From NCBI GenBank assembly GCA_002633005.1, contig NMRA01000395.1, positions 230,994-294,993 on the forward strand: 64,000 nucleotides of DNA. The letters are read 5' to 3'. Each line of letters begins with the position of its first letter. Within the stretch, counting starts at the first letter, position 1. A model generated the notes under the pieces. That model worked only from the letters and a program-made list of their open reading frames with translations. It made no database searches and was not told where the DNA came from. Positions 5,031 through 47,700 of the stretch are shown piece by piece. The translations under genes were made by a program, and so were the position numbers. Source of the DNA: Phoronis australis (taxonomy: Eukaryota; Animalia; Phoronida).

Positions 5031-5502
5031 AGATGACGCTAGTGGCCATTTTTACCGTTTTCAAGTCTGTTTTTGGCATCCGCCCTTGTATTAACCAAAT
5101 CACTCTTGGGATGATTGTGAAAATTGGCATATTTTTATCATGTTCTTACTCTGAAGAGGGCAGGTGACGATTATTTTCCAAGAACTTCCACTACTGTGGC
5201 ACCTCCTAGTGGCAGTTTTTTTATGCCCATGGCTATGTCTCCTAAACCCTCTAGAGGATCTTTATTGAATTTAGCTGGTGTATTTATTTGAAGTTGACAA
5301 GGAACGACGACAACTTTGAGACGGTTCTGACAAAGACTGTGGCAATTTCATTTTTTTTCCATTTTCCTCTGTTTCTCTGAACCTGCTAAATTGGCGGATT
5401 TTTATGAATAGCTTTCTATTAAAACGATGACATGTTCCTTTTTGGGAAGCACACCGTTTTTGATGCATTTGTGGGCCCATTTCAAGGTTCCACATTGTTC
5501 TT
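5031..5502 (+). mobile_element. HINE (non-autonomous Helentron) family, 5'-truncated copy
   Basis: Internal repeat subunits and degenerate 3' end gtgggcccatttcaaggttccacattgttc. Confidence 0.7.
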
Positions 5503-7267
5503 TTTACTATTGTTGCGTTGTTAATGGACTCTGGAAAATAACAGGGACAACATTATAATTTTGAACATCTGTTGCATAGTTTTGTCAACATTCGAGAATG
5601 AAAAAATAAGCGCGAGAGCTGTATTGAAAAGTGGTTCATGTAGATAAAAGCTGGCGCCTGGGTCTGTACCAAAACATGAGGGTGAAATGTTCTTCCCAAC
5701 ACATAAGTCAGGAATGCAGTTTTCGTCAGATGGGAGCGGTAACACCTAATGATGTTTTTGTTTTTCAGTCGAATGGAAAATTGGGCATCCTACAAATTCA
5801 GTGAAACATTTTATTTTCATTATAGTGTAATGGGATGATAGAGCTATGTCAAATGGAAATCGCAATAGCATTGTGTTAATATATCAGTTTTTGAGTTTGT
5901 CTAAAAGCGAGACATTTTGATCGTGTAGTACATAAAAATTCAAAACGTGGTATAGTCTGCCGATAGTGAGACAGTTGTCAAGTTCAATGTGTGCTGTCAG
6001 CAACACTAAGTGTTAGATTGGATTTTTTGCAAGGTACACTTTACTTGTAAATTATATTTTACTGGTATGGGTCAATACAACATAACATTACTGCACAGAA
6101 ATTGAATAAATATTGTATTTAGGCAACAAATAAACATTGTACAAAGGACTTATAATTTCACAAGCAGTAGATAACAGTAATATACTTATGCATAATTATG
6201 CATAATTATACACCATGCTCATTTGATCTAATAGTCAATAGTGCCATTTACACTTCAAAAGTTGTCATGGATCAGCTCAGTGACAATAATATTGGAATGA
6301 GATGTTCCAGCGCAAGTATGTGTGGACTTAATGGAGCAAATTGACACAGCGGTATCAACCTTGAGGTAAAGCAATTTGTGCTCGATCATCTTGCTCCATG
6401 TCTAAACGCGAAACTGGTAAGGTGGAAAGAATCATCTCTACTGCACTTGTATACTGACCTCACATACGGTTATCTGTATCTCTGCAACTCCCGCATGAGC
6501 GTTTCACTCTCCAGCCTACAACTTCAATCTTACCACAGTTAATGAGTTGTGTGTGTAAACGGTTGCTTGACAACGATCAATTTGCTGTGTGTCAGTTGGG
6601 CCGGGCCAAAAGTTGATGTCTAAATGGGATTAATATTCCATATTTTCAGTGCAACGCTATATGTATGTGTAAGAAGAGCTTGAGAAACGTTTCTGTCACC
6701 AAATGGGAACTTTCTCTTTTATAACGGAATATTAAGGAACTGTTACGGTTTTTCAATAGCCTAAGACCATACAAGTGTAATTATGCAGTGAACGTTGTAT
6801 TTCTTTCCTCCTATGTGACCATTCACTAACTTCATTGAGCGCTGTATTCAAACAATTAATCGGCGAATGTAAAAATATTGTAGAAATTTCAAACCTCATC
6901 ATTTTTTAGAACTTGGGGGAAACTTGTTTCCAAGCAACACACTAATTTTCACCAATCATATCAATCTACCTTGAAATCCAGAACATTAAACATTTTCACT
7001 GAGCATCCTGCTTTCACTGCACTAATACTCAGTAAAATTCCATCCCTGCTAGTCACCAGAGCGAAATGCTGCCCATTATTGTTAAATGCACGTGAAGCTT
7101 GTGATATGAAATCCATGTACATTTATTAAATGTAGATCATGTGCCGCAAGACTGTCGTCATTGGTTGCATGATATGTCCTGCTTGAAACTAAATTTTAAC
7201 ATCATTAGAGTACGAATTTACCTGTATTTACTTGGTTTGAACTCCCGCCACTAAGTTAGTTTTGTTT

Positions 7268-9435
7268 ATTATGCTGTCATCTCCGTCTGTCCGGCATCCG
7301 TCCGGTGTCCAGTGTCCGGCATCCGTTGCTCTATCTCCTAAAGGCTTTGACGTGCGTTCATGAAATTTTGCACTTATGTTTCTATCATGGATGGGACTAC
7401 ATGAGCGAACTTTCGGACGGATCCGACTACCGGTGTGTCCCCTAGTGGCAATTTTAGTTTTTTACGCTTACCTCTATATCATCAAAGGTCCTAAACGTAT
7501 TTTCATAAATTTGGCATATAGGCATCTATTGGTGAGATGATGCTATCCTTCTGCTTTTGGATGGATTCGACGTAATTTGCACCACATGGTGGCCATTTTT
7601 GATGTTTTCGAGTCTGTTTTTGGCATCCACCCCTCTATCAACCAAACCACTCTAAGGATGATTGTGGAAATTCGCATGTATGTTTTTATTATGAAAAATA
7701 TGGCTGACAATGATTTTGTGACAATTTTGAATACTCTGGTGCCTCCTAGTGGCAGTTTTTTTTCTTTTTGCGCCCATGGTTGTATTTCCTAAACTGTTGG
7801 CAGGAACTTTACTAGATTCTGCAAGTGTATTTATATGATGTTGACAATGAATGATGACGACTTTCCGACGGATTTGACTACGGTGTGTCCCCTACTGGCA
7901 GTTTAATTTTTTTACGTTTACCCCTGTATCTTCAAAGGTCCTCAAGGTATTTTCAAAAAATTTGGAATATAGGCACCTATTAGTGAGATGACGCTATCCT
8001 CTCGTTTTTGGATGGATTCAACGTAGTTTACACCACCTAGTGGCCATTTTTACTGTGGTTCAGTATAAGGATGATTGTGGAAATTGGCATGTATGTTCTT
8101 ATTATGAACAGGATGGCTGACGATGATTTTTCGACAATTTCGACTTCTGTGGTGCCTCCTAGTGGTAGTTTTGTCTCTTTTTGCGCCCATGGCTGTATCT
8201 CCTAAACAGTTGGCAGGATCTTTACTAAATTCTGCAAGCGTATTTATATGATGTTGACAAGGGATGACAAGTTTCGGACAGATCTGACTACCGGTGTGCC
8301 CCCTAGTGGCAATTTATGTTTTTTACGTTTACCTCTGTATGTTGATAGGTCCTCAACGTATTTTCATAAATTTGAAATATAGACACCTATTAGTGAGATG
8401 AAGCTATCCTCCCATTTTTGGATGGATATGACATAGTTTGCGCCACCTAGTGGTCATTTTTACTGTGGTTCAGTCTGTTTTTTGGTGTCCACCCCTTTAT
8501 CAACCAAACCCCATCAAGGATGATTGTGAAAATTGGCATGTATGTTCTTACTATGAAGTTGACGAATTACCAATGACTTCGACTAACTGTGGCGCGTACT
8601 AGTGCCAGTTTTTTGCGCCCATGGCTGTATCTCCTAAACGGTTTGCAGCATCTTTCATCTTTGCTAAATTTAACAAGTGTATTTATATGATGTTAACAAC
8701 GGATGACAACAACTTTCGGACGGATCTGACAACCAGTGTGCCTCGTAGTGGCAATTTTCATTTTTTAGGCTTACCTCTGTATCTTCAAAGGTCCTCAATG
8801 GATAATCAGAAAGTTTGGAATATAGGCATTTATTGTTGAGATGATGCTATCCTCCGGCTGTGGGATGGAATCGATTAACTTTTACACCACCTGGTGGCCA
8901 TTAATCCTTTTTTCGAGTCTTGTTTTTTGGCGTCCACCCCTCGATCAACCATTCTGAGGATGACTTTGAAAATTGGTATATGGTATATGTTCTCAGTGTG
9001 AAGAGGACGATTGACAATAACGCATTCGACTACTGTAGTGCCTCCTAGTGGTAGTTTTGTTTTGTTTTGTTTTGTGCCCATAGCTGCTCCTAAACCACTG
9101 CAGTATCTTTATTAAATTTATTAAATTTAGTGATTGTATTTATATGAAGCTAACAACAGATGACGACGTCTTTCAGGTGGATCCAATGAAGGCTGAAGTG
9201 GCAATTTCATTATTTTTTGTTTTCCTTTGTTTCTCTGAAGTTCCTGGACAGATTTTTATGAAACTTGCTAAGTAGCTTTCTATTAAAGAAGCGATGGCAT
9301 GTACCCATTTTCAGATGGATTGGATGTTTTTTTCACCCTCTTGTGGCTATTTTTATGAAACAGTAAACAACCTTAGAATCACTTTGTTTGCGGTGTATTC
9401 GTGAGCGCATTTCAATGCTCCGCATTGCTCTTGTT
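7268..9435 (+). mobile_element. HINE family copy with about 4 internal ~450-bp repeats
   Basis: GTCC microsatellite near 5' end, tandem core repeats, 3' subTIR GTGAGCGCAT followed by hairpin CAATGCTCCGCATTG and ctcttgtt. Confidence 0.8.
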
Positions 9436-10032
9436 TGCCACTAGGAGCACTAGTTTTTCGACTGATAACCATTGCGGCGAATGACAAGAATGGCAGATTG
9501 ATGCCTCCTATTGTGCTACACTCTTTTGTATTTTTGATATATTATGGACATCCACTTTGACAAGAGAAAGTTGGATAAGTTGAATAGTTGCCATGGGTGC
9601 ATCGGATGTTAGTTTGTTGCTTTTCTGACAAAGGCAAGAAGATCCAAGCGAGTGGATAAAGCAATTTGTCGCGTTAATTTTGAGCCAAAAACACAACCCC
9701 CTTTCTTGTACCTTTCAATTCTGGTACTTTTTAAGTATCAGTCCACGGATCCACCGACCACAGTACAGCCAACAAGCGGCAAGGTGGGGGGTCAACCATT
9801 CAAATCCATGTTTAGTCTGATAAATCACTTTAGGGATGAGAGAAAATGGGTGAAGTATGACACCACAAAGTTTGGTGGTTTAGGAGATAGAAGGGAAGTG
9901 TTCTGGGGGGCAAAATGAGGCAATTTCTTGGTGTGGAATGAGTCATTTTTGACCAAATTTTCTACTCCAGTTTCTGCTTCAAACAGAATCGTTTCTGAAC
10001 AATTTTGATATCACATGATAGGTTCATGACCA

Positions 10033-10292
10033 NNNNNNNNNNNNNNNNNNNNNNNNNNNNNNNNNNNNNNNNNNNNNNNNNNNNNNNNNNNNNNNNNNNN
10101 NNNNNNNNNNNNNNNNNNNNNNNNNNNNNNNNNNNNNNNNNNNNNNNNNNNNNNNNNNNNNNNNNNNNNNNNNNNNNNNNNNNNNNNNNNNNNNNNNNNN
10201 NNNNNNNNNNNNNNNNNNNNNNNNNNNNNNNNNNNNNNNNNNNNNNNNNNNNNNNNNNNNNNNNNNNNNNNNNNNNNNNNNNNNNNNNNNNN
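10033..10292. other. Assembly gap (260 N)
   Basis: Run of N abutting a minisatellite. Confidence 0.99.
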
Positions 10293-10691
10293 GTGTTTAT
10301 GGACTTAGTGACATTGATTACCTATTGTATGTTCATACCTGTTGCAGCTGTGTTTATGGACTTAGTGACATTGATTACCTATTGTATGTTCATACCTGTT
10401 GCAGCTGTGTTTATGGACTTAGTGACATTGATTACCTATTGTATGTTCATACCTGTTGCAGCTGTGTTTATGGACTTAGTGACATTGATTACCTATTGTA
10501 TGTTCATACCTGTTGCAGCTGTGTTTATGGACTTAGTGACATTGATTACCTGTTGTATGTTCATACCTGCTGTAGCTGTGTTTATGGACTTAGTGACATT
10601 GATTACCTATTGTATGTTCATACCTGCTGTAGCTGTGCTTATGGACTTAGTGACATTGATTACCTATTGTATGTTCATACCTGTAGCAGCT
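10293..10691. repeat. 57-bp minisatellite, 7 copies visible
   Basis: GTGTTTATGGACTTAGTGACATTGATTACCTATTGTATGTTCATACCTGTTGCAGCT. Confidence 0.95.
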
Positions 10692-11709
10692 TAACTCCTA
10701 TCCAGCTGCCTGTATTGTTAAGTCTTGAGTTATATTTACAAACATCCCAGCCCAAGCTTCTCCCCCATTGGTTAGTTATGTATTCGGTGCACATTCTGAT
10801 TGGTCGAATAGGTTCACTTGCTTGTTATACCTGGTATATGTAATATGGTTTTACTATCACACCAGTAGCTTTTAAGACATCATATTGATCACATGTTTTT
10901 CTCTTGGAACCACCTGCACTACAAAACCAACAGTGACCGACATTCCAAAGCTAATAAGTCTATGAAAATATTTATTAAACTTGCTTTTTGACCTCTGGGA
11001 TAAAGGAGAGTTTCATTGTGTAATTCTGGACAGCCCTACTGATTGCCATCTAGTTACAGTACAACTATGACAGTGCTCCTGACATGTTTGTTATCTTGTC
11101 TGTGCAGTGAACTAGTTTCAGGATTACTATCAAATCTCATTGTGACCCTGACATGCTTATCTGTGCAATGGAGTTCCAGCTACTCTCAGATCACACCCTG
11201 ACCTTGACCCCGTAATATAGTTATGAAATGAAGCACTAAGTTTCTCCAAAATCTTACTTTTTTATTTTTGTTGTTTTCATTTGGTGAATTCCAATTGGTT
11301 TCTAACAGTAAAGTTTAATTAAATTCGAACGTCATTTTTGATTTTTCAAATACACACTGTATTGCCAAAGATGTTCAAAATTTCATTGCGTATTTGTTGA
11401 TCACAGCTATACTAAATGAAGTTTTCAAATAATGAGATATGTAAAACTGTCTTCTTGTTTACCCTTTTGAAAAATTTGATAAATAAATGTACAATTTACT
11501 GTTTCACCATTTTGTGTAATCTAATTTAAGACAATTTACTCTACTTGTCTGTGTCTGTTTTGTCTACTTGTTCACACTACAGGTTGAAAGTTTTTCCAAT
11601 TTACATGAAATTTTATCCTTGATATGCATGTGCATAGTTTCATAGTTGCATAAGTTCTTTTTATTTTCTTGTTGTATCCCATGGTTCAAATGTTTGTTTT
11701 CCTTTCCAG

Positions 11710-11725
11710 GCTCTATCTGCAGCTG
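11710..11725 (+). CDS. Candidate 16-nt microexon (ALSAA-G), possible end of signal peptide
   Basis: ttttcctttccag|GCTCTATCTGCAGCTG|gtgagt; phase 0 to 1, joins in frame to exon 14398 giving ALSAAGNSSLSTT. Confidence 0.45.
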
Positions 11726-14700
11726 GTGAGTTTGAAAACGTGACCCATTTCTGCATTTCCTCATTTAACTGCATATCGTGCTGTATCATTCTGAAACCGC
11801 ACATCATTATACTTGTCGTTTTCAAAATCCTCAATAATGAAATCAAGTTAGTTAACACAGTGACCCATCTGGGCTCAGAAATATGACTTACGTAGCCTGG
11901 TCACCAGCTGTATGGACAATCTCATCAGTCCCTACCCTCAAAAAAGTCATTCCTGCACTTCATTAGATGGTATCTGGTGAATTGTTGGTTTTGAAAAATA
12001 GACACCTAAAATACTATGCCAATTTTCAAAAACATCCTCTGAGGAAACGAGGAAGCTAAGTATGTATGTGACAACCAGTGCCACCTATTGCTGACAGCGT
12101 TCCAGTTGTGATAAGGTTCACCTAAATCTGACTGGATTAAACTTGACAAAGCAACACACTTTTTGAAAAACAAATTTTGTATTCTTAACACCTGGAGTGC
12201 TTGTAACTTTAAGTTCATGCATGCAGTGTGTTACTTCGAAATGTAATATTTTTCAACCTGGGGTTTGGCTTAGCAGGCAATCCCTTGAAAACCCTTATAC
12301 TTTTCTTAGTATAATACACACTTTGCAGCTTGCAGTTTGAGCAGCTAAATTTACTTTGCACAAAATCAGTAAAATGTGATATGTCCATTGAAGGAACTAA
12401 GGCATTTTTATGTGCCCACATATTTATATGTGGATGCATTATGCCGTTATCTCCTTCCGTCCGTCCGGGCGGCGTCCGTCCAACGTCCACTGCTCTATCT
12501 CCAAAACCCTTTGACACACGTTCATGAAATTTAACACTTATGTTCCATTCATGAATGGGACAGCATGAGCGAACTTTCAGACGGATTCGACTACCGGTGT
12601 GCCCCCTAGTGGCAATTTTATTTTTTTGCGCTTACAAGTTTATCTTCAAAAGTCCTGAACAGATTTTCATGAAATTTGGTATGTAGGCACCTATTAGTGA
12701 GTTAACGCTATCCTTCCGTTTTCGGATGGATTCGACTTAGTTTGCGCCACCTAGTGGCCATTTTACTGTTTTCGAGTCTGTTTTTTGTGTCCACCCCTCT
12801 ATCAACCAAACCGCTCAAACGATGATTGTGAAAATTGGCATGTATGTGCTTACTATGAAGAGGACGGTTGACGATAATTTTCCGACAATTTCGAGTACTG
12901 TGGTGCCACCTAGTGACAGTTTTTTGTTGCACCTGTGGCTGTATCTCCTAAACCGTTCGCAGGATCTTTACTTAATTTAGCAAGTGTATTTATATGATGT
13001 TGACTACGGATGACGACAACTTTCGGACATATTTGACTACTGCTGTGCCCCCTAGTGGCAATTTTAGTTTTTTACGTTTAGCTCAGTATCTTCAAAGGTC
13101 CTCAACAGATTTTCATAATTTTTTTACTATAACTGTCAACCCCTTGTATATCAGTTAGGTTCAAAACTAGCACAGGATCTATTGGTGTGATGACGCTATC
13201 TACCTGTTTTTGAATGGAATCGAGGTATTTTGCACCACCTAGTGGCCATTTTTTGCTGTTTTCAAATCTTGTTTTTGTTGTCCACCCCTGTATCAACCAA
13301 ATCATTTGAAAATTGGCGTATATGTTCCCAGCAAGACGACCTTTGATGATGGTGACTGACTACTGTGGCGCCTCCTAGTGGTAGTTTTGTTTTACGCTCA
13401 TAGTTGTATCTCCTAAACCCACTGCAGGATCTTTACTAAATTTAGTAAGTGTATTTATATGATAATAACAACAGACAACGACTTTCAGGTGCATCCAACG
13501 GACACTGTGCCCACTAATGGCAATTTCATTTTATTCTGTTTTCCTTTGTTTCTCTGAAGTTCCTTGACAGATTTTTATGAAATATGGCAAGTTCTTGTTT
13601 TTGGATGGATTGTATGTTTTTGCGCCATCTTAAGTGGCCATTTTTATGATACAGATAAGTAACCCTAAAATCACTCCATTTGCAATGCATTCATGGGCGC
13701 AATTCAACGCTCCGCATTGCTCTTGTCTATAACATACTATTGCTGGGAGCAGGTTTGACATCATGGGGCACTGCAATCTCACTGTGCCCAAAACGATCTT
13801 TGTATTGGCTGTTGAATGACCTTCCTATATCAGTATGGAAGATCTCTGGGGACATGCTGAGTTAGTCTAATAGCTTAGTTCCTTGCTAACTGTAGATATA
13901 GAGCTTTCATATTAGTCTGATTTCATTCCTAACACATGAAATGACTGTATTAGTAATTTAGTAATTAGCTTTTGCTACTGAACTAGCTGAGGTCTTCCAT
14001 AGCTATGTAAAGAATGCAAATTAAGATGCAAAGTATGGAAGGGAAGTGGAACTTACTCAGTTCAAATTCCTCAACAAAATTAACGTTTTGGTAAAATCGT
14101 GTTATTTTTGGATGAACTGGCATTGTGGAACAACAATAATTATTTTTAATACGATGTTCTCCATGATTGATGAATTGTGCTTAAGGCCTAAAGCCATTTG
14201 TCAATAGTCCACAAACTTCAAACAATGAAAGTTGTTCTTCATTATTTGCTGGTTTTGTTCAAAACAGACTGTAGGTTTGGAAAATTTGCTTGTTTGACTT
14301 TCAAGAATTCCTAATTTTGTGCTTACTATTCAGTTCTAAGAATTATCTTAGTCCATTAGAAGGTTGTTTGTTTAATATTATCAATTTATCTTTTCAGGAA
14401 ACTCAAGTCTATCAACAACTCCATTGTCTTTCATTGACACCACTGTGACTACCACTGTAATAAGTAAGACACTTAAAAAAATTCATTCCTGACTTTGTAG
14501 ATTCTCCATATCTCACTTTCAGTTTTGGTCATGGAAGACAGTTGATGGGAGTGACAGCATGAGTTTTTTTGAAAATATTACAAAGTTTATGTTTGAAATG
14601 AATAATTCAAATGATCGATGGACTATATCATTCATCCAGGTGAATAACTAGATGCGAAAAAATTATAAATTAAATTTTTATATTTGTGAAATAATTTTGG

Positions 14701-17700
14701 TGGAGCTGCTTGGCTCTAGGGAATTAATGACTGACTGGTTCCTGGGAAAATTTTGCTGCCCTCTGACTGCATTCATCAGACAACAACTGCAAGTCCCTGA
14801 AGCATGAGTCAGACAATTTAGTTCTGACTCATCTGTATCTATTCAAAGAGGGTTCTTGTCTTTAACCCAGACATCCTCTTAGACACTTCACTCAAACCAT
14901 GTTCTTTCTGACCGTCTGTTTAGTCCTACCAATATGCAAATCTTTACCTTCATCACAATCACATGGAATGTGAGTCACCACTCTACCGACATCACCGAGT
15001 GGAGGTTTGTCATTATGGAACAAAAGCTACATCTGAACATGTCAGCAGGCATGTGTTCTATTCTAATACCCTTCATAATAAAAATTCTTTTGAAAGAATT
15101 TAACATACGGCACTGTAGCAGTGGTACAAATATTCTGCTCTCCTTGCAATTGCCATGTAAATAGCCCAGTTAATCAGAACCCTGCCAAGTGTTCTTTCTC
15201 TGCAATGACCACCTCGGCAGTGGTGCAAAATGACTCTGTACAATGGTCTAAGTTACAATTAAATAACACTCAGTTTGTGCTCCAGTGGATGATTAGAGTC
15301 AAATAGTTAATACTGGTCCATGTGTGTCGGCTTCCTATGAACAAAGACACTTTTAAGTATAAGTTTAGGAATGGAATCTTAAAAAGTTCCATTGTCTCTC
15401 TCATGGAGCCAAGATGTCAAAAAGGGCATGATACTCCCAAGAAAATTATTTAAAGTAAGTCCCAGAAGTTGTGATTTGTAATTTTTTGACATCCAATAAT
15501 TTGAATTTGCACTGATTGAGTAATCGTTAATTATTTCTCAAATTTTCAGGGAAAACATAAGTAAACAATTATAGCACTTGTCGTTTGCTCAACTCACTAG
15601 GTCACTAATACATGAACATCATTTCTTTATATTGTTATTTGTGTTTACATTCCTTTCAGTTATTTTTGTTGTGTCTCTTCCCTTACATTTCAACTTATTC
15701 TCGCAGCACTCGATTTGGCAACCTGTACGCCAATGTGACCCCAGATTGTGTTTTACGACCTGAGAAAAATTACAAGTCGCCGTGAAGTCGCCACACAAGC
15801 ATCAAAATCGGACATTAATTCCCTCTAAATTTGTTTTAAAGTTCCTGTTGACTTACAAAAAATTATTAACAGTTAAAAATTGTTTTATTTATTTCACGGA
15901 ATCCGTGCATTTGCTACCACAGCAGTCAGCAGACATCAAACGCGCTTTAATTACAGCAGGAAGGTAAACAGACTAAAGTTGGAATTGCTCCGCCAAAATC
16001 AACTCTGGTCCCTAAGTACAACTTTGACTTCATCTGGTCACATCAACAGAGTGTAGCTCTGTACCAAGTATTGTTTTGACTTTGATTTCAGCTGATTCTA
16101 CTAAAGTGACTCATCAAGTGTTATCAACTGCAGAGATGGGTTCAACTGCAACACCTGCAACACAACCAGGTTAGTCTCACTGAGAGTCATGTTACCACTG
16201 TTACCATTAACTTGTTATCTCCTCTACTGTCATCATTATGGGATTTTCACCATTGAGCCTAACTTGTTGGATTGTATAACCCAACAACAGGTTGGGAGGA
16301 TGACCCCTGTAGCCAATATCTTACACCACTGATAAACTCCATTCTGGCATTCATGGTGAGAGCCAGTTCTCTTTTGTTCGATAATTGCTCTGATCTCCCA
16401 TAAGATCCTATCTAGCAGGACTGGGCTATGCTGCTAAACATAAAAGTTAAGTTGTAACATATTTGAACATAAACCAGTACTATACAATCCAATAGCATTT
16501 CTGAATTTCTGGACAAAGGCTGATCCTGTTTAGTTTTTGAATCACCAAAATCCTCCCACTACAATTGAACTTATGACAATCTATTCTTTCCAAACTTAAC
16601 AATTTGCACAGGATTTGGCTGTGTTCACAGGTGGTCTGTAATAAACCTTATAGATAATTGGCCTGCCTGTTGTCATCAACCAGACAGATGACTGTGCTTA
16701 GCAGTTGACAAAGGAGCTAGATGTTATCACACATTCCTAAAGTCACTGAACAGGAGAACGCCCTAATGTCATATCAGCAAGGTTTTGTCGAAATCATGCA
16801 GTTTGCTTTCAAATCTGGTCCTGGAGTCTGTGTCATCCGACATTTACGTTTAACTGTTTTGCTCTTTTGTCTTGATCTCGTGAGAATACCAATTCCAAAA
16901 CATAATCTACAATGGAATGATAACACAATAAAACGTCTAAAGCAGTCCAAACCAGAGCATTTTGGATGATCAGCCGTAATTGAAGTCATTGAAGTCAAGA
17001 CGTTGCTGTAATGTTGTCCGTTTTATTGGCTTACTGTTTTTTTGCCTTTTGTGTTATGACAAAGCTTGGTAAAATCTGGTTAGTTAATGCATAGCATGTT
17101 AATTGTTTGTGCGATATACTTGTGTTTTCTTATATTAAATACTTCACATGAGACAGCATTTATTGGAAGAACATTGTTTCAGCTATAACTCACAGCAATT
17201 TCATTGGAACGTCAACCTCTTCAACTGTTCCTACTTCTGCAACTATCTTGTCTCTTTCCACTTCAACTACTGCTTCCACTGGGGCTTCTACCACTGTCCT
17301 ATCTATTCCTACTACAAATATTCCAACTACTAATGCCTCTACCACTAACCTGTCTGCTCCTACTACAACTATTCCAACTACTAATGCCTCTACCACTAAC
17401 CTGACTGCTCCTACTACAACTATTTCAACTACTAATGCCTCTACCACTAACCTGACTGCTACTGCTATAACCGTTACACCTACTAATGCCTCTGTCCCTA
17501 ATATGTCTGTTCTTAGTACAATTACTATTTCTACTGCTGTCTTCACCACTAATCTGACTACGCCTAGTACAACTACTCCCACTACTCCTGCTTCTACAAC
17601 TAACCTAACTGCTCCTACTACAACTTCTACTGTTGTCTCTGCCACTAACTCAACTATCTCAACTACAACTGCTTCAACTACTATTAATTCAACACATGTT

Positions 17701-32700: not shown

Positions 32701-35700
32701 CAAAGCAAGCACTTGGAAGTATTCCAATCCTATGAGTACCAGACTTCACCCAGAGATTCATTGTCAGGATAGACGCATCAAACGATGGTTTACTAGCAGT
32801 CTTACTGCAAGAGTTTGATGATGGGACATTCCCTATTGCGTACGCCAGCCGGAAGCTTAAAGAGAGTGGCATTACTTCACAAAGGAGAAGGAGTGTTTGG
32901 CTATAGTGTTCCCATTAAATGCTTCCAGTTTTATCTGTACGGGACGGACCCCAAACCATTGGTATATAGTGTTCCCGTTAAATGCTTCCAGTTTTATCTG
33001 TACGGGACAGACCCCAAACCATTGGTATATAGTGTTCCCGTTAAATGCTTCCAGTTTTATCTGTACGGGACAGACCCCAAACCATTGGTTTATAGTGTTC
33101 CCGTTAAATGCTTCCAGTTTTATCTGTACGGGACAGACCCCAAACCATTGGTTTATATTCAGCGCTGTAAGATTGAAAGCCCCAGAGTTATGCGATGGGC
33201 TATAGTGATGCAGAATTGTAAATTCCATGTGGAGGATATCCCGGGAAAATCTAACATTGGTGCAGTCTACTTATGTCGACTAGCAGATCCTGCAATTCAT
33301 GTACCACTTAAGAGAAGGACACAGAAGCAGAAGATTTTATATCTGTGCCAGATGATTATGAGTTAGAAAATTAGAGAATAATTTTCTCTTTGACAGGGGT
33401 GTGTTGTCGTGTGTTGAGGTCAGTACAGTGATGATGTTACTTGTTTACCAAAGAATAGTGTGGAGCATTCTAGAAGATTCTAACACTTTTAAAGTCAGTT
33501 AAAGTTAGTTACAAGAGAGTTACAGTTGAGTTGCAGTCAAGGCTTTGCAGCACTGGGTGGAGCATAGAACAGACATTACGTCAGACGTTTTGTTCGACTA
33601 TGCTTGTGAGCGTACAGTCGAGATTAATAAAGTGATTAACTCGAACCAGTCTGCAGTCTTTTGTTGCACCGAAAGTTATTAGCACCAGTCGGTAACCACC
33701 TGTGCACACCCACACGTTGGGGAAAACGTCACAATTATTTATCAACCAAAATTTTGAGAAATGTTAATGGTGGGTAAAGCGGACTGTGTCTGATCGTGGG
33801 TACACTGAAACTACCTAAACTTGGTCATTCACCTTTCAAATTCATCATTTTCCAGTTTAGGAAAGTATGAGAACAAGCCAGATAATCAATTGTAGTACAA
33901 ACAATTTACAAGATCGAAAAAAAATTTTTTTTAAACATATTGAGTAAATACTATGAGTATTTTGGCCTAGATCAAGTCAGTAAATATGTTTTGTACATAA
34001 ATTATTAACCAAAGCCTTGGCAAGAGCAATACAATGTGACAGCAATGTATTTATAACAGTCCGTTCATCACTGGATGCTAATCAATGTATTTCTAACAGT
34101 CCGTTCATCACTGGATGCTAATCAATGTATTTCTAACAGTCCGTTCATCACTGGATGCTAATCAATGTATTTCTAACAGTCCGTTCATCACTGGATGCTA
34201 ATCAATGTATTTCTAACTGTCCGTTCATCACTGGATGCTAGTATAGTGAGTCGTGTTATTTTATCACCCTTTCAGTGCTGGGTCAAGTGCAGACTGTAAC
34301 TGTGTCTGATCCTACGACCACAAGTGTGACCGTGACATGGAGTAAGGCTGCTGGATTCAAAGATCACTACATCCTCACGTGTTTCAGTTCAGGCTCTGAA
34401 ACACACACTGCCACATTACCAAACAATGCAACATTTGCGCAGTGCACAAGCCTGACACCTGGTGCCATATATAACATTACTGTTACTACTAAGAAACATG
34501 GCTACGATAATGTAGTGTCTGATGTTACCGAGGAATCACTTTGTAAGTAAAGTCTTTGACCCTGGGTGTTTTGAAGGGGAGAGCTGTAAAAGTTTAATTT
34601 CAGGCGACTGTGATGGTTAATCCTTACATATTTATTTTTTTCACTACACTGAGGTTGTTGTATGTTTTGTTGTATGTTATTTGTTATTCAGCCACATGTA
34701 CGTAGTGGGTGCATAGTGACTGTGCACCTGTTGTACACCCTCATACAGAAGCATCATGAAAGTTGGCATTTGTTAAGCTGACCACAGATGGCGGTGACTT
34801 GTAGACTAATCAAACTGCGGTTGTGCTTTCTGTTGACTTTTGGTTTTTTATGCATGCCTCTGTATCTGCCCAGATCCTTGGCCTTGATAGATTTTGCGAA
34901 ATTTGGCAAATCTGTTCCTGTTAGATGATAATGAAAGACAGCTTCAAAATTTTGGGCAGATTATCTACATCTCCAGGTGGCCACTTTCATTAGGTTTTGA
35001 GTTTTTGCAGTCCTTCTCTCTCTATTGGGGAAACCACCTGAAGGATAATTTGGTAGAGTAATTTTGTATGGAGCAGAGAACAAGCAACATTGATTTTCAA
35101 ACAGGTCAGAATATTGTGCTGCCCCTAGTGGTCACTCTTCTGTTGTCTGTAGTGTACCTCAATATCTGCTAAGTAAGGTCCTTGATGGATCGTCCAGAAA
35201 TTTGGTTTATATGTCCCTATGAGGGTCAGTTCATCTGACGCTGATTTCAGGATGAGTCTGAATAGTGCCAATTTAGGTTTAATGTTATTCTTTAAATAAT
35301 AAATCTTCATAAAATTTGTTTGATAACTGTGGAAAGAAAGATGACTGTGCCTGCCAGTTTTAGAAAGATTTAACCTCCTCTCCATCCCCTAGCAGCCATT
35401 TTTATGATGTTTTTGGCATGTGCCTCCCAAACCACTTGAAGATTCATTAAAGTTTTTAGGTAGGTTTTGTCTGGAGTTGAGGAGACTGCCATGTTGCCCA
35501 CATTAATTTTCGGACAGATTGTTGTGGCTTTCTTTGCAAGAAATTTTGGTTTACTTTGTTTGACTTATGCTTTAATATCTGTCAAAGTATTTGGTGGATC
35601 TTCATGAAAGTTGGCGTATGTGATCGTATTGAGGTTTTTTCCAGCTGTGGTTGGTTTTTGGGACAGTTCATATGTCTTTGGCTCATGATAGTGTTGGTTT

Positions 35701-38700
35701 TTTATGCCTGTGTCGATACCTCTTTAATGGGTCTTCACGAAGAGACAGCATGGCAGATATGGTTACTGTTGTGCTTCCTTGTAACAATGCAGGTTTCTGA
35801 AAGTTAGCATTTTTCTCATTAATAATCTACTGAAATTCTGTGTTGTTTTCAAGTTTTCAAGAACTTTGATGTATGTGTTTGTATTGGGAAAAGTCTGGTT
35901 GGTGTTGATTTTTGGACTGTTGTGCCCCCTAGTGGCAAATTGACGTTGCATCTGCCTTAATACCTACCAATTGAAAGTTCTTTCAATTGATGAATCTTCA
36001 TGAAATGAGATCTATGTGTTCCTAATGAGAGGACCACAACTTGTGTTGATTTTTAAATGAATTCTGCTATCGCCAATCATTTCTTATATCTTTGCCATTT
36101 GCCATGCTTTTATTACCCTTCCCATTTGAGTACAAAATCATACTTTGAATAAACGTTTGTTTCAATGTCATATTTCAGCTACTGACAAAACCGGATATAC
36201 TCAAACATTACTATTAGGTAGTAGTTGCAGTTTTGACTTCTAGTATTCTTGTCTCCATTTTTATGCGCCCACATATTTATGTACGGACGCGTTATGCCAT
36301 CATCTCTGTCCGGCGTCCGTTCAGCGTCCGTCCGGCGTCCGCTGCTCTATCTCCAAAACCTTTGACATTAATGTTCATGAAATTTTGCATATGATATGAT
36401 GTTGACACCAGACAACAACTAGTTTCGGACGGATCTAACTACTGGTGTGGCCCCTAGTGGTAATTTTAGTTTTTTTTACATTTACCTCTGTATCTCCAAA
36501 GTTCTTCAATGGATTTTCATGAAATTTGGAATATAGGTATCTATTGGTGAGATGACGCTATCCTCCCATTTCCAAATAGAATCGGGATATTTTGTTTCAA
36601 ATGGTGGCCATTTTTATTGTTTTCGAGTCTGTTTTTTCGCGTCCATCCCTTTATCAACCAAACCGTTCTCAGGATGATTTTGAAAATTGGCGATGTTCTC
36701 AGTGTGAAGGGTACGATTGTTGATGACAGCATTGAGTACTATAGCGCCTTCTAGTGGTAGCTTTGTTATGCGGCCACATATTTATATGTGGATGCATTAT
36801 TTCGTCATCTCTGTCCGTCCGTCTAGTGTCCGTCCGGCATCCGCTGCTCTATCTCGAAAACCAATTGACATATGTTCATTAAATTTTGCATATGTTCCTT
36901 TCATGGATGCGACGGCATGAGCAAACATTCAGACGGATACGACTACCTGTGTGCCCCCTAGTGGCAATTTTAATTTTTTACGTTTACCTCTGTGTCTTCA
37001 AAGGTCCTCAACATATTTTCATAAAATTTATTACATAGGCATCTATTAGTCAGACAATGGTATCCTCCTGTTTTCAGATGGATTCGACGTAGTTTGCTCT
37101 ACCTAGTGGCAATTTTTTACTGTTTTCGAGTCTGTTTTTTAGCGTCCACCCCTTTATCAACCAAACCGCTCTAAGCATAATTGGCATGTAGGTATGTTCT
37201 TACTATGAAGAAGACGGTTGACGTTGATTTTCCTACGACTTTGAATACTGTGGCGCCTCCTAGTGCCAGTTTTGTTTGTTTGCGCCTATGGCTATATGTC
37301 CTAAACTGTTTGCAGGATCTTCACTAATTTAGTTGGTGCATTTATATGATGTTGACAACGGACGACGATGACTTTCAAACAGATCTGACTACTGGTGTGC
37401 CACCTAGTGTCAATTTTATTTTTTTATGTTTAATTCAGTCTGTATTTCTAAAGGTCCATAAGGTATTTTCTTAAATTTGACATACAGACTTTTGTTAGTG
37501 AGGTGATGCTATCGTTTTGTTTTCAGATGGATTCGTTCTAGTTTGCGCCACATAGTGGCCATCATTACTGTTTTCGAGTCTGTTTTTTGGCGTCCACCCC
37601 TCTATCAACCAAACCACTTTCAGGATAATTGTGAAAATTGGCATGTATGTTTTTACTGTGAAGTGGATGGCTGACGACTACTGTGGCGTCTCCTAGTGGC
37701 AGTCTCATTTTTTGCACCTGTGATTGTATCTCTTAAACCATTTGCAGGATCTTTACTAAATTTTTTTACTGTGTTTATATGATGTTGACAATGTACGGCG
37801 ACTTCCGGATGGATCTGACTTCTAGTGTGCCATCTGGTGGCAATTTTAGTTTTACGTTAAATTTACCTTAGTATCTTCAAAAGTTCTCAACGGATTTTCA
37901 TAAAGTTTTGAATATGGGCATCTATTGGTGAGATGACGCTATCCTCCCATTTTCGGATGGAATCAAGGACTGGTATTTTGCATTGCCTAGTGGCCATTAT
38001 TGCTGTTTTCGAGTCTGTTTTTTGGCGTCTACCCTCCTATCAACCAAATCATTCTAAGGATGGTTTTGAAAATTGTCGTATATGTTCTCAGTGTGAAAAG
38101 GGTGGTTGACAATGACGACTTTGAATAATGTTGCGCCTCCTATTGGTAGTTTTGTTTTGTTATATGCCCATAGCTGTATCTCCTAAGCCCACTCACTACA
38201 AGATCTTTATTAAATTTAGTAATTGTATTGATATGAAGCTAACAACAGACAATGACGACTTTCAGGCGGATCCAATGAACACTCAGTGCCCCTAGTGGCA
38301 ATTTCTTTTTATTCTGTTTTCTGAAGTTCCGTGACGGAGTTCTATGAAATTTGGTGAATAGCTTCCTATTAAGGAAGCAATGACTTTTTTCGTTTTCGGA
38401 TGGATTGTACAGTTTTGCACCATCTAGTGGCTATTTTTATGACACAAATAAACAACCCTAAAAGCACACAATTTTCGATGCATTTGTGGGCGCATTTCAA
38501 AGCTCTTCGTTGCTCTTGTTTTGTTTTGTTTTTGCGCCTATAGCTGTGTCTCTGAAGCCCACTGCGGGATCTTTGTTAGCTTTAGTAAGTGTATTTATAT
38601 GAACTAACAACAGACAATGACATTCAGACAAATCCAATGAACGTTTTCGAATGGATTCGATGTAGTTTGCACCACTTAGAGGCCATTTTTACTGTTTTCG

Positions 38701-41700
38701 AGTCTGATTTTTGCAGTCCGTCCCTCTTTTAACCAAACCGCTCTAAGGATGATTGTGAAAATTGGCATGTATGTTTTTACTCTGAAAAAGATGAATGACA
38801 AAGATTTTCCAACGACTTTGACTACTGTGGCGCCTCCTAGTGGCAGCTTTTTGTACCCTTGGCTGTATCTGATTTTCAGAGTGCAAAAGCACTCTACCGT
38901 TTCCCAGATTAACATAAATAAATTTTCTCCACCTTGTGCTGTTTTCATCATGAAAACAAAGGTTCAGTTTGGTCAGCGTGTCGATTCTGCGGCAGTAAAA
39001 AACACCGGCGCCGTGCGCTCCTACCAATTCAGTAGATGTCGCCCCTCACACGATTCTTCTAGACAATAGATCACCATGGTTGGTCATGCACAAAGGAATT
39101 TGTGGACTAGCCCGAAGCGAAGAAAAAGGGGGGTAGGTGGAAGACTGATCCATATGCTTACAGCAAGTGAAATTGGTAATCTACGAACAGGGGCTGCCTT
39201 TTGGGTGGTTAAAATCGAAATTTTTGAAAAATCTTGATTTGTTGCTTACTGCACAGAGGACTGTGTTTACCCTCACGGATCTACACTGACGTTGGACTTC
39301 AAGCATTTCAGTTAATAGATAGGTCGAGGTATTGAAGTAACGGACTTCCAACGGCCTGTAGTGCACGATACAGTGGCGTCGTGATCCCGAGTTTGATTGG
39401 CTTTTTACGTACCTCGGTGGCTGTTCGTCATTTCTTGGGTTCAGCAGAGCAAGTTTCTTGAGAGACAAGACAGATCAAGCAACATTCCGCTTGTTCGCGG
39501 TGTATTTTTAAGGGAACCACTTGATTTTGTGAGGATTCGCTTCCCGCTTGTAGTAATAGCTGAGATTACCCGACCCGGGAATCGAACCAGCGACCCCCAT
39601 AAAACCGGCAAACGTGCTAACCATTCAGCTAATAGGCAATTGCCCGTTAGCAAGTAGCTAACAGAGGCTCATATGATTCACCGGAAGCACATCTACAACA
39701 TGCTGGACACCTAAGCAACCAAACACGTGCTAATGATTGACAGCCTCCCGTTCAGTAACGCTAGGACCTCGCTAAAAAGCAAGACTTCGCGAGATTACGT
39801 GAAATATTGCCGTGTATTTCAAATGAGAACACGTGACTTTGTCTAGATTTTAGCTAGGTCTTAGCTTAGGTCCTAGCGTTACTGAACGCACGCCAGGTCT
39901 TCTTACTGAATACTTTGCCTGGAACTTATAGTTTGGCAACCAAGCACGTGCTAATGATTGACAGATTTTCTAACTGAATGTGACAGGACGTTCGTAACTT
40001 TACACTTATTGTTATTCTTATTTAGTTGCAAATGTTCAGTTATTCTTATGCTAATGTCTTTGTTGCGTCTCAGTGCGCCTTTGTTACGTGGGCATGTGGG
40101 CGCGACTGTGTGTGTCGGGCACTTTGCTAGCGACAGGCTTAGGAGAAGGGTGTTTCCTTCCTTTGCCTACATGAAATTGATCGTTATCATGTGTAACTGA
40201 ACTGATCCTATGCCTGATGAGGTGAAATACACATTTTTGATGCTCAATGGAGACTTGCTCTGTTACATGAATACTTTGAACTTAATTTGAACAATGTAAC
40301 ATTTTATATACATTGTATATTTCTTTTTTTAGTTCAAAGCCAAAACCGCTCTTGTTCAAAGTCTGTGCTCAACAATTGGTGATATTACTATTATGCATAG
40401 GGGTACTCGGTGGGCTGCCAAAATAATGAAGCAAACACATGTGTAAAAACCAGGCAAATCAAAAGTTCAAAGAATAAGTTTTCGACCACGTGGATGTGCA
40501 CAGAATGTTTGACTTGAGCTTAATGACAAGTTGATTTTGGTTGGGCGCTTCCGTTTTGGTGTCGGGTGAGGAAGAATGCAGTTTCTAATTAAACTACTTT
40601 TATGTCAGATTTTATCTGGTCAGTCTTTTACCCACATTGGCGCCGTAGCTGTAGCCTCTACTTTGCATGTAGCTTTGCACCAAGGCAACGTCTTGTGTTC
40701 CTGGGAATTCATCTACGTCAAAAGTTTCTAAGTAGGAATTCATTTTCTAAAAACGATACTAGCCCTAATAGATGGTGATACCAACACACGAAACAATGAT
40801 TTTTATTGACATTGGCAGCAAGTGACGCAAACGGCTGGGCGACTGAACTTCGGGCTGGGCGCTAGATTTTCTGGCTCACTCGCCCAGCTGGCAAGCGGGG
40901 TTGTGATTTTGTTTTGTTTTGTTTTGTTTTGTTTTGTTTTGTTTTGTTTTGCGCCCATAGCTGCTATATTTCCTAAACCGACTGCAGGATCTTTACTAAA
41001 TTTAGTAAGTGTATTTATAGGAAACTTAGACGATGACTTGCAGGTGGCCGTTGTGACCCCTAGAGGCAATTTCTTTTTTTTCTGTTTTCCTTTCAATTGT
41101 TTCTCTGAAGTTCTGTGTTAAATTTTTATGAAATTTGGTAAGTAACTTTCTATTTAGGAAGTGACGGCATGTTCCGTTTTCAGTTGGATTGGACGTTTTG
41201 TGCCATCTAGTGGCCATTTTTATTTTACAAATATACAACTCTTGAAGTACACCATTTGCGCTGCATTCGTGGGTGCATCTCAATGCTCTGCATTGCTCTT
41301 GTTATGAAATTTGGCAGTTAGCTTTCTTTTAAAGAAGCGATGGCATGTTCCCATTTTTTGGGATAGATTCAACATTTTTGTGCCATCTAGTGACCATTTT
41401 TATGATACAAATAAACAACCCTGAAAGCACAACGTTTGCGGTGCATTTGTGGGTGCGTTTCAATACTCCGCCTTGCTCTTGCCTATAAATATTTAAAATA
41501 AAATGAACTCTAGTTTTTTTAATGAAATGTGAAGTGTTGAAACTTAGTGTTTAATGTTAGTAACATTTTTGTAATGAGATGTCTTTATTTTTCGCTGAAT
41601 GTAGACCCAGCCCGACCAGGAAACTTGAATCTAGCAGCCAATGGTAATCAGCCTAACTCACTGGAAATAACATGGCTCAACTCTAACGGTGTAGTCATCG

Positions 41701-44700: not shown

Positions 44701-47700
44701 CCTTGGCTGTGTTGCACTCAGCTCATGATCAAAGGGTTCCCGCCTAGCTCCTCTATTCATCCGAGTCATGAGCGAGGATAATTGGCTTCGCTTATGCGGA
44801 TACAATCAGCTGATTACAATCTGGCCTAGATGACTGTACTTTTTATGAAGAGCGTTTTACGTAGTTTTGAGTGTAATATTTGAAAAGAGGAGAAAAAAGA
44901 TGTTGGTACAACTTTGAATTTTTCAAATCAGCCCAGAATAAGAGATTTAGCAACACAGCAACACTCACAATTACCGTTTCATTCAGAGCGCATGTATACA
45001 AAAGATAGGACCCAAGTTATTTAGATTTTGGAACACATGCATTGCAGTTTTCAAAAAACATTTACTTTAGCTCTTACAAGCTGTAAAACGATGTTGTGCT
45101 CATTCATTGCCATCCATCAAATCGGAAATTTCCGAGATGTGATCTGCGGCATGCGCGTATGTATACAAAACACGGATCGTTATGTTCCTGAAGTACAAAC
45201 ATTAAGAAACTTTAGCATGCCGTTATTATTGACAGGGACATGATAAAACGAATTTGGATTTTTATGCGCCCACATATTTATATGTGGACGCATTATGCCA
45301 TCATCTCCGTCCGTCTGTCCGGGCGGCGTCCGCTGCTCTATCTCCAAAACCCTTTGACATACATTCATGAAATTTAGCACATGTGTTCCATTCATGAATG
45401 GGATGGCATGTGCGAACGTTCGAACGGATCCAACTACCGGTGTGCCCCCTAGTGGCAATTTTAATTTTTTACGCTTACCTTTGTATCTTCAAAAATCCTC
45501 AACGGATTTTCATGAAATTTGGTATGTAGGCACCTGTTAGTGAGATGACGCTATCCTCCCGTTTTCAGATGGATTCGACATAGTTTGCGCCACCTAGTGG
45601 CCATTTTTAGTGTTTTCGACTCTGTTTTTGTGCATCCACCCCTCTATCAACCAAACTGCTCATAGGATGATTTTGAAAATTGGCATGTATATGCTTACTA
45701 TGTAGAGGAGGGTTCACGATTTTCCGACGATTTCGACTACTGTGGCGCCTCCTAATGGCAGTTTTGTTTTGTTTTCGCCTATGGTTGTATCTTCTAAACC
45801 GTTCGCAGGATCTTTACGAAATTGTGTAAGTATATTTATATGATGTTAACAACAGAACATGACGACTTTTGGACGGATCCGACTACCGGTGTGCCCCCTA
45901 GTGGCAATTTTAGTTTTTTACACTTACCTTTGTATCTTCAAAAGTCCTGAACGGATTTTCATGAAGTTTGGTATGTAGGCACCTATTAGTGAGATGACGC
46001 TATCCTCCCATGTTCAGATGGATTCGACATAGTTTGCACCACTTAGTGGCCATTTTACTGTTTTCGATTCTGTATTTTTGTGTCCACCCCTCTATCAACC
46101 AAACCGCTCAAAGGATGATTGTGAAAATTGGCACGTATGTGCTTGCTATAAAGAAGACAGCTGACAATGATTTTCAGACGATTTGGACTACTGTGGCGCC
46201 TCCTAGTGGCAGTTTTGTTTTTTTTGCGCCTATGGCTGTATCTCCTAAACCGTTCGCAGGATCTTTACGAAATTTAATAAGTGTATTTATATGATGTTAA
46301 CAACAGACGATGACGACTTTTGAACGGATCCGCCTACCAGTGTGCCCCCTAGTGACAATTTTATTTTTTACGTTTACCTCTGTATCTTCACAAGTCCTTA
46401 ACGGATTTTCATGAAATTTGGTATGTAGGCACCTATTAGTGCGATGACGCTATCCTCCCATTTTCGGATTGATTTGACCTAGTTTGCGACACCCAGTGGC
46501 CATTTTTACTGTTTTTTAGTCTGTTTTCTGGCGTCCACCCCTCTATCAACCAAACCGCTCTAAGTATGATTGTGAAAATTGGCATGTATGTTCTTACTAT
46601 GAAGAGGACTGTTGACGCTAAATTTCCCATGACTTTGATTACTGTGGCGCCTCATAGTGGCAGTTTTTTTTGCGCCCATGGCTGTATCTCCCAAACCGTT
46701 TGCAGGATCTTTACTAAATTTAGCAATTGTATTTATGTGATGTTGACAATGGACGAAGACGTTGCAGCCGTTTAAGTGATAACCAAATAAACACCATTTT
46801 CTTGCATAATCCTCCTCCTTTTGTAACAAAAGTCTGTCGTCGATGACCCGCACGCGCTCGCTCACTCAGACACTCTAATACGCAGAAGAACTTCAAAACA
46901 AACGTCACGCGACAGCAACATGTGTGTTCATCCAGAGATTTCTCTCGTGTTGTGGGGTACGATGTAGCGCAAATTTGGACTTAATCGCAATTAGTCTGGA
47001 CTCCACATGAACTAAAAAAATTGTAAAACATAAGGAGGATTTCAGGAAATTTGTTGAGTCGAAACTGTAGAAAGACTGTCATAGGCTACAAATAAGTCAC
47101 AGAGCGTAAATTTGATAAATCCTAGCTTCCGATTTTACCCGGTACGGAAACCGGGTTTCTGAACTGCCTTAGACTACAATAATCGTCCCCTCCCGTGAAA
47201 TAAATTTTTGTATGCGCCCGGTATACAGCTTTTCACCGAGGCTAGGTGACGCTACGGCATATGCTTTGTTGCTTGTACGGATTGTTGCCATTTTTTTCTT
47301 GTTTCCATTACATAATGATGGCGGAAATGAAAACGTTGCAAATTTGAATTTTAATGTTTGCATAATCCTGAAAATCAGAGATCGGTAAACCAAGTTTTTT
47401 AAATCACTTTCAGCGAAAAACTAGCAGAAAATTGCCATGAAGGTATTAACTATTCCATGCAGCATCATTTAACTGGTCTTGGCTAATTATCTTTTTATGG
47501 CCTGGTCATTCATTCAGCCAAAAGTAGTTCCATAGGTGGCTTATCAGCCAATTATTCACGCATGCTGACTCACAATAGAAGCCTGATAAGAGGGAAGGTA
47601 GATAAATGTGGTGTTCCTATAGTTTCTTGTGGTAGTGGATGTGTTCACAACATGTTTGGAACACAAGTTTTTTTAGCTTTGGGACGAACTGCATGTGTTG

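Follow-up and report, generated by a model that had tools for sequence, protein, structure and literature searches.

Arrays of a CTCF-like box in a non-autonomous Helentron of Phoronis australis: sequence evidence for constraint on the propagating element

Results and discussion

The 64,000-nucleotide stretch of the Phoronis australis genome analysed here (GenBank assembly GCA_002633005.1, contig NMRA01000395.1, positions 230,994 to 294,993 of the forward strand; hereafter, the window) harbors about ten copies of a repeat family that we assign to the HINEs, the non-autonomous Helentrons. Each ~150-bp central subunit of this element carries a GC-rich box that matches the core of the CTCF consensus, and the pattern of substitutions suggests that constraint on the box operates during propagation of the element and is lifted once a copy has inserted. 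We favor, with confidence that is evenly balanced, an explanation in which the box would bind a host zinc-finger protein, probably CTCF, and the central repeats would form a predicted docking array that helps the element itself to spread.

The CTCF-like box in the central repeats

The central region of the element is built from a 451-bp unit, as delimited by TRF, which comprises three ~150-bp subunits (A, B and C) with pairwise identities of 60-62% and a motif-to-motif spacing of ~145/158/146. An internal repeat of ~450 bp had been described in the original prediction, which was made by inspection of this DNA, and the three 16-mers that it quoted for the subunits are indeed present at 45442, 45587 and 46196. 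The corresponding boxes are as follows.

45442 to 45455, minus strand: motif A, CCACTAGGGGGCAC, an exact match to the consensus, without CpG
45587 to 45600, minus strand: motif B, CCACTAGGTGGCGC, with T at position 12 in 14 of the 26 B rows
46196 to 46209, minus strand: motif C, CCACTAGGAGGCGC, with one mismatch to the consensus

Using the CTCF consensus CCASYAGRKGGCRS, as supplied by the original prediction, 14, 34 and 60 matches were found on the minus strand of the window at zero, at most one and at most two mismatches, respectively, against 0, 0 and 3 on the plus strand. The number expected by chance at one mismatch or fewer is 0.18 (100 shuffles) as against the 34 observed, and all of these 34, as well as 54 of the 60 at two mismatches or fewer, lie within element copies. 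The one-way orientation of the motifs that had been claimed is therefore confirmed (60 versus 3), and the 60 minus-strand matches agree with the earlier estimate of ~50-60 copies, although this total requires that two mismatches be allowed. As the motif copies are paralogues, they do not constitute independent evidence.

Constraint on the propagating lineage

Substitutions were compared in 18 units from eight insertions at this one locus, with six old-family segments and eight terminal or partial segments of the 32 left out. In non-CpG G/C columns, private substitutions, viz., those seen in one insertion, occur about equally often in the motif and in the rest of the unit (5.2% versus 4.9%), whereas alleles common to several insertions amount to 0.15 per column in the motif versus 0.54 in the rest (Poisson p=0.002). 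Over all non-CpG columns the latter values are 0.16 and 0.33 (p=0.036), the depletion of shared alleles not being significant in the A/T columns alone, and the same private and shared pattern is obtained with 26 segments, when only the six old ones are left out. A tree test with held-out columns placed a share of 0.11 of the motif changes on internal branches as compared to 0.33±0.07, a value reached in 1 of 200 draws, while the tip changes in the motif were not reduced (53 versus 44). Lineage-inherited substitutions are about 3-fold depleted in the motif, and motifs A and C rank 15 and 28 of 418 in lineage constraint. Since the inherited substitutions are depleted and the private ones are not, selection appears to have acted on the propagating element and not on the inserted copies, and the equal tip rate in the motif argues against a lower mutation rate. 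Constraint at the level of the lineage is thus shown by these sequences, and the box would be free to decay after insertion; no purifying selection on inserted sites is discernible at this locus, where the private and tip rates equal those of the flanks.

Comparisons between subunits and between copies give a mixed picture of the earlier claim that the motif is the best-preserved part of the repeat. Between A, B and C it holds, as 11 of the 14 motif columns are identical in all three subunits versus 51 of 131 columns elsewhere (Fisher p=0.005). Between copies it holds only in part, with conservation ranks of 4, 177 and 187 of 436 for the 14-nt windows of A, B and C, respectively; some non-motif blocks are equally conserved, and the whole motif is deleted in 2 of the 20 C-subunit rows. 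The motif had also been said to persist in old copies. A motif-free profile detected 15 plus-strand subunit matches in the old arrays at 18.0-18.8 kb and 34.7-36.1 kb, of which only four retain the motif at two mismatches or fewer (background 34 of 3000), and in the four long old segments the identity in the motif (0.64-0.75) is about that of the flanks (0.65-0.70), and the persistence is consequently weak.

Resemblance of the box to CTCF sites

The boxes were scored using 16 of the 20 rows of a zebrafish matrix derived from chromatin immunoprecipitation (ChIP), as given in the available portion of Data S1 of PMC7182764, instead of JASPAR MA0139. The unit consensus of A scores 7.2 without and 9.7 with a pseudocount and that of C 6.6 and 9.1, and shuffled subunits attain the A or C score at p 1e-4 to 2e-3; the exact consensus arose in 3 of 200,000 shuffles. 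Motifs A and C are hence predicted CTCF sites by a core match that is better than chance. The majority form of B, on the other hand, scores -0.8 without and 4.9 with the pseudocount and fails in the former case, such that the likeness proposed originally for all three motifs extends to A and C. The differences that define the A, B and C types, including those of a terminal variant, fall at positions 8, 9 and 13, where the consensus is degenerate, and the dominant motif A is devoid of CpG.

Anatomy and class of the element

The copies identified in the window are listed below.

5032 to 5505, plus strand: 3' fragment of the element
7266 to 9437, plus strand: HINE copy of four units with the 3' end present and the 5' palindrome missing
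12404 to 13727, plus strand: complete HINE copy with both ends, the 3' one comprising subTIR, short stem-loop and CTCTTG
18024 to 18813, plus strand: old diverged relative with both ends and motifs at two mismatches or fewer at 18444 and 18570
23072 to 24500, plus strand: HINE copy, 5' intact and 3'-truncated, with the C motif deleted in two units
34740 to 36080, plus strand: old diverged subunit array, ends not delimited, with motifs at 35118 (two mismatches) and 35922 (exact)
36257 to 38870, plus strand: outer HINE copy, interrupted by the nested copy
36768 to 38518, plus strand: complete nested HINE copy in a T-run of the outer C subunit, with 2-12 extra bases of T/G-run and no clear target duplication
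40938 to 41482, plus strand: 3' fragments that include two 3' ends, with the terminal variant of the motif, CCACTAGATGGCAC, at 41200
45258 to 46761, plus strand: HINE copy with intact 5' end and three 451-bp units, 3'-truncated

The assignment to the HINEs is supported by anatomy. According to the available text of PMC4067079 and PMC7492417, the HINE layout consists of a 5' subterminal inverted repeat (subTIR) with its inverted repeat, a GTCY microsatellite, central tandem repeats, and a 3' subTIR with a palindrome, and the ends, microsatellite, core and central repeats of the present family agree with this, as does the Helentron derivation of the original prediction. The 5' end has a T-run and an 11-bp subTIR, ATGCGCCCACA, which forms a stable hairpin with its inverted partner (z -4.54 versus shuffles) and is followed by a GTCC microsatellite, a core that lacks the motif, and then the 451-bp units. 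The 3' end has an inverted subTIR (a perfect inverted copy is found at 38485-38500), a short palindrome forming a stem-loop, and CTCTTG; its 6-bp stem is predicted in one of three folded ends and is not beyond shuffles. Six 5' and seven 3' ends are present in the window, and the copies cover 10,852 of its 64,000 bases (17%), excluding the old copy at 34.7-36.1 kb. A canonical Helitron (5' TC, 3' CTRR with a 16-20-nt hairpin, insertion at A|T) was considered and rejected, as the ends are T-run/subTIR and CTCTTG and CTAG is internal. The copies overlap no stop-free frame longer than ~140 codons, no autonomous Helentron partner was seen in the window, and Rfam and ARAGORN scans gave no match.

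Mobility of the element is shown by hundreds of distinct 5' junctions: the 5' boundary is sharp at 45258/45259, beyond which unrelated AT-rich flanks occur in 193+160+53 contigs, the 193+160 being from run X1. The contigs matching the stretch number 36,997 in run X1 and 187 in run X7, which is of another organism. The nested insertion at 36768-38518 lies in a T-run, the length of which is ambiguous, and the flanks of the outer copy rejoin in register on its removal.

Outside this organism, a 20-mer of subunit A, which we refer to as the HINE core word, was located at 112 loci, i.e., 111 metagenome loci from 4 of 64 parts and one viral-contig locus, and in 86 of them it trails a GTYY microsatellite; the HINE core is therefore a likely origin of the subunits. 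The box is found near the same core at none of the 112 loci at one mismatch or fewer and at three of them at two or fewer, which means that HINEs in general do not require it, though this control mostly represents a single, unrelated HINE-like family that has no central arrays, and 31 of its loci span only ~600 bases. Searches for further copies found no match to the 5' palindrome among metagenome or viral contigs, to the core in prokaryote genomes, or to the motif with the core in prokaryote and viral contigs. The 20-base core word itself occurs exactly in an estimated ~2200 metagenome stretches, in HINE-like elements elsewhere, and this deeply conserved core could be a site for the transposase or for a host factor.

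At ~11920-12120 on the minus strand there is also a diverged fragment with a HINE-like core on the opposite strand; it has a two-mismatch CTCF-like box at 12078 whose polarity is reversed relative to its own core.

Possible roles of the box

In the docking explanation, to which we give an even chance, the box would serve as a binding site for a host zinc-finger protein, probably CTCF, the source copies so bound would be kept open or unmethylated and would hence be available to the rolling-circle transposase (Rep/Helicase), and the box would be kept by selection on the multiplying element and not on the inserted copies. Since the sites would decay neutrally after insertion, any insulation would be a side effect. 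We infer both the identity of the binder as CTCF and the benefit, protection from silencing, the latter being the survival strategy proposed, as a hypothesis, for CTCF-carrying retrotransposons in the available text of PMC3368268.

Several observations weigh against this explanation. Motif B, with T at the invariant position 12 in 14 of its 26 rows, has a lineage constraint that is only average (rank 184 of 418), and its CpG decays to CA and TG in a ratio of 14:2 (p=0.004), toward the non-binding state, the ratio at other CpGs being 104:105. Some non-motif blocks match the constraint on A and C, which rank 15 and 28 of 418. The upstream U/M2 half-site, which is optional in CTCF sites, is not evident by eye, the 5' side being an A-tract. 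Further, the choice of the motif was made post hoc, with many possible motifs and repeat families to choose from, and the sample is that of 18 units from eight insertions at one locus.

A possible, though less probable, explanation is that the box serves the machinery of the element itself as a signal, either as an iteron-like site for the zinc finger of Rep/Helicase or as a single-stranded mini-hairpin whose loop is CTA/TAG, and that its likeness to CTCF sites is coincidental. Such a signal would equally account for constraint on the lineage but not on the copies, and a zinc finger is present in Helitron Rep/Helicases, as stated in the portion of PMC4067079 available. The loss of C12 in B suits a binder other than CTCF, the motif is quasi-palindromic with a perfect 5-bp stem in B, and the HINE repeats of oyster have a similar layout with a different GC-rich, partly palindromic box (by eye, in the available part of PMC7492417). 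However, the motif hairpins are no stabler than shuffles (z -0.07 to -1.39, as against -4.54 for the 5' hairpin), and position 9 has three states while its pairing partner is fixed, with no compensation; a hairpin-only role is disfavored. The absence of the box at one mismatch or fewer from all 112 loci of other organisms and the low probability of a 14-base match (p ~1e-5 to 2e-3 per subunit) likewise count against a signal of this kind, and loose contig ends do not pile up at CTAG among the best-supported rows. CTAG was also rejected as a Helitron terminus, as it is not at the element end and no Helitron-type hairpin precedes it. A nicking or termination site at the CTAG core, an alternative that the original prediction had itself raised, accordingly finds no terminus, hairpin or end pile-up at CTAG in its favor.

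Going further than the docking explanation, the satellite-like central repeats might represent a selected CTCF-recruitment module, in which case the site arrays would maintain the activity of the source copies and the element would flood the genome with very many co-oriented intronic sites, in competition for CTCF and with incidental effects on chromatin; we regard this version as tentative and improbable. If true, it would explain what the central repeats of HINEs do, and it would be direct evolutionary evidence that CTCF serves transposons as a survival strategy.

It is doubtful that the box is functionless, i.e., a chance GC-rich word that was amplified with the repeat and owes its conservation to a few source lineages or to conversion between subunits. 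The small and related sample, the resemblance of some boxes to A/B hybrids (at 12903, 37397 and 37827), the weak retention in old copies and the many repeat families screened are consistent with a functionless box, but the held-out tree test (1 of 200) and the comparison across subunits (p=0.005) are not. Least likely of all is the mobile, copy-number-tunable insulator or loop-anchor cassette of the original prediction, kept by the host for directional looping: although tandem CTCF sites insulate in mammals (PMC7087399, in the part available), repeat-borne sites can separate chromatin domains (available text of PMC3368268) and the arrays are dense at 17% of the window, inserted copies lose the motif at the flanking rate, with private substitutions and deletions striking it at a neutral rate (2 of 20 C motifs deleted), a single locus with ~10 arrays, several of which split the introns of one gene, would make a poor boundary design, the orientation is explained by tandem duplication and sense bias, and the accessible portions of PMC13317027 and PMC7854359 report that there is no orientation rule at echinoderm boundaries and annelid sites, respectively.

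Orientation and transcription

All ten insertions are on the strand of a host gene for a receptor tyrosine phosphatase, described below. First mates from two RNA runs that bear the same organism label fall on the minus strand of the element by 33:1 and 28:1, and this bias holds in the 5'-boundary bin, where the reads run into diverse flanks. With the usual library chemistry, and without an exon control, the element is sense to transcription at many loci. The element copies contain AATAAA twice in the sense and 20 times in the antisense orientation (10,852 bases), and the sense bias likely results from selection against the AATAAA-rich antisense orientation and the premature polyadenylation that it would cause, with strand-specific insertion as an alternative.

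The co-orientation of the arrays follows from tandem duplication together with the bias of the whole element to be sense to transcription and, being explained otherwise, it says nothing about loop extrusion. The available text of PMC13317027 reports that in echinoderms the orientation of CTCF motifs is not tied to boundaries and orientation-dependent looping was not seen, and that orientation-dependent CTCF looping is absent in flies, while annelid CTCF sites have no directional arrangement according to that of PMC7854359. We found no report of a sense bias of Helentrons or HINEs in the literature searched, which left out most subscription papers, and the ~30:1 bias in transcripts gives the family another feature that is open to test.

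Comparison with known systems

Among described elements, the closest are the HINE/DINE-1 group, especially Cg_HINE of oyster with its 140-180-bp central repeats, which has the same ends, microsatellite and fixed repeat orientation (PMC4067079, PMC7492417, as far as available). Cg_HINE inserts in T-rich sequence without target duplication, and the nested insertion described above lies in a T-run of ambiguous length. The present family differs in its higher-order 451-bp trimer and in the CTCF-like box in every subunit. In supplement 2 of PMC7492417 (3.35 M characters, in cells of at most 400 characters), the oyster arrays contain CCTAGTGG six times and CCACTAGG 45 times and lack the box, and six motif words had no match in the supplements of PMC4067079 (42,774 characters, perhaps without the sequence files as text). 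The strong sense bias in transcribed regions is also not reported for HINEs in the available text of these two papers.

Transposon-borne CTCF sites are already known from the portions available of PMC3368268, PMC7182764 and PMC9341505. Mammalian B2 and other short interspersed elements (SINEs) similarly multiply a CTCF motif, with a survival benefit proposed there (PMC3368268), as do non-autonomous DNA transposons of zebrafish such as TDR13B (PMC7182764); the word Helitron does not occur in the available zebrafish supplement of the latter. The SINE and zebrafish sites have ChIP support and were counted as repeats with a site, whereas here each element has an array, which is known from sequence alone. 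The variable number tandem repeat (VNTR) of SVA, bound by BORIS/CTCFL, and other CTCF-bound tandem repeats are likewise arrays of variable copy number, mobile in the case of SVA, though BORIS represses the SVA, a mammalian retrotransposon (PMC5007689). The DXZ4 macrosatellite is likewise a co-oriented array of variable copy number, but is fixed and mammalian (PMC8662614). Binding has been shown for both SVA and DXZ4, as the accessible parts of these papers report, whereas for the phoronid arrays it is a prediction. DINE-1-like elements with MSL binding sites in Drosophila miranda are another example of a HINE with a site for a host chromatin protein, but these are host-domesticated (PMC4067079, in part), while in the present family it is the element lineage that is constrained, and not the copies.

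HINE central repeats, CTCF sites in transposons, arrays of sites for the CTCF family and HINE-borne MSL sites are thus each known, but a Helentron or HINE with CTCF-like arrays is not reported in the literature searched, which did not extend to most subscription papers or to Repbase/Dfam; the portions of PMC13652810 and PMC9659126 available add nothing further on such arrays. The purpose of the ~150-bp central repeats of HINEs is left open in the available text of PMC4067079 and PMC7492417. Selection on the element and selection on the host are distinguishable by the pattern of substitutions, which points to the former. If CTCF does bind, the family would provide a tractable invertebrate system for the idea that CTCF benefits transposons, as well as an abundant supply of such sites in an animal that is not a vertebrate; if it does not, this would be an ordinary HINE family with a constrained box.

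Host gene and other features of the window

The element copies are located among and upstream of the FN3 exons of the host gene.

22650 to 60620, plus strand: host gene region of an R3/PTPRQ-like receptor tyrosine phosphatase with FN3-domain exons; copies that fall between these exons are intronic and co-oriented with the gene

A protein search with a single exon gave no match. Among 280 proteins, the best colinear relatives are PTPRQ-like proteins of amphioxus, with 38-41% identity at the best exon and chain scores of 343-385, the latter only moderately higher than the 237 of the best nameable coral protein. A near-identical duplication of an FN3 exon with its flanking intron is seen within the gene at 24978-25900 and 27236-28100, and a Thr/Ser-rich mucin-like exon with a 51-bp repeat at 17152-17715 is probably part of the same receptor. 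A decayed fragment at 31000-33400 resembles a long terminal repeat retrotransposon (RVT_1, E 8e-10) and has frameshifts and an internal 63-bp minisatellite. Young intronic minisatellites with repeats of 30-63 bp and 96-99% matches are present at 10293-10691, 19598-19871, 34043-34240, 48029-48474, 50432-50779 and 53791-54345.

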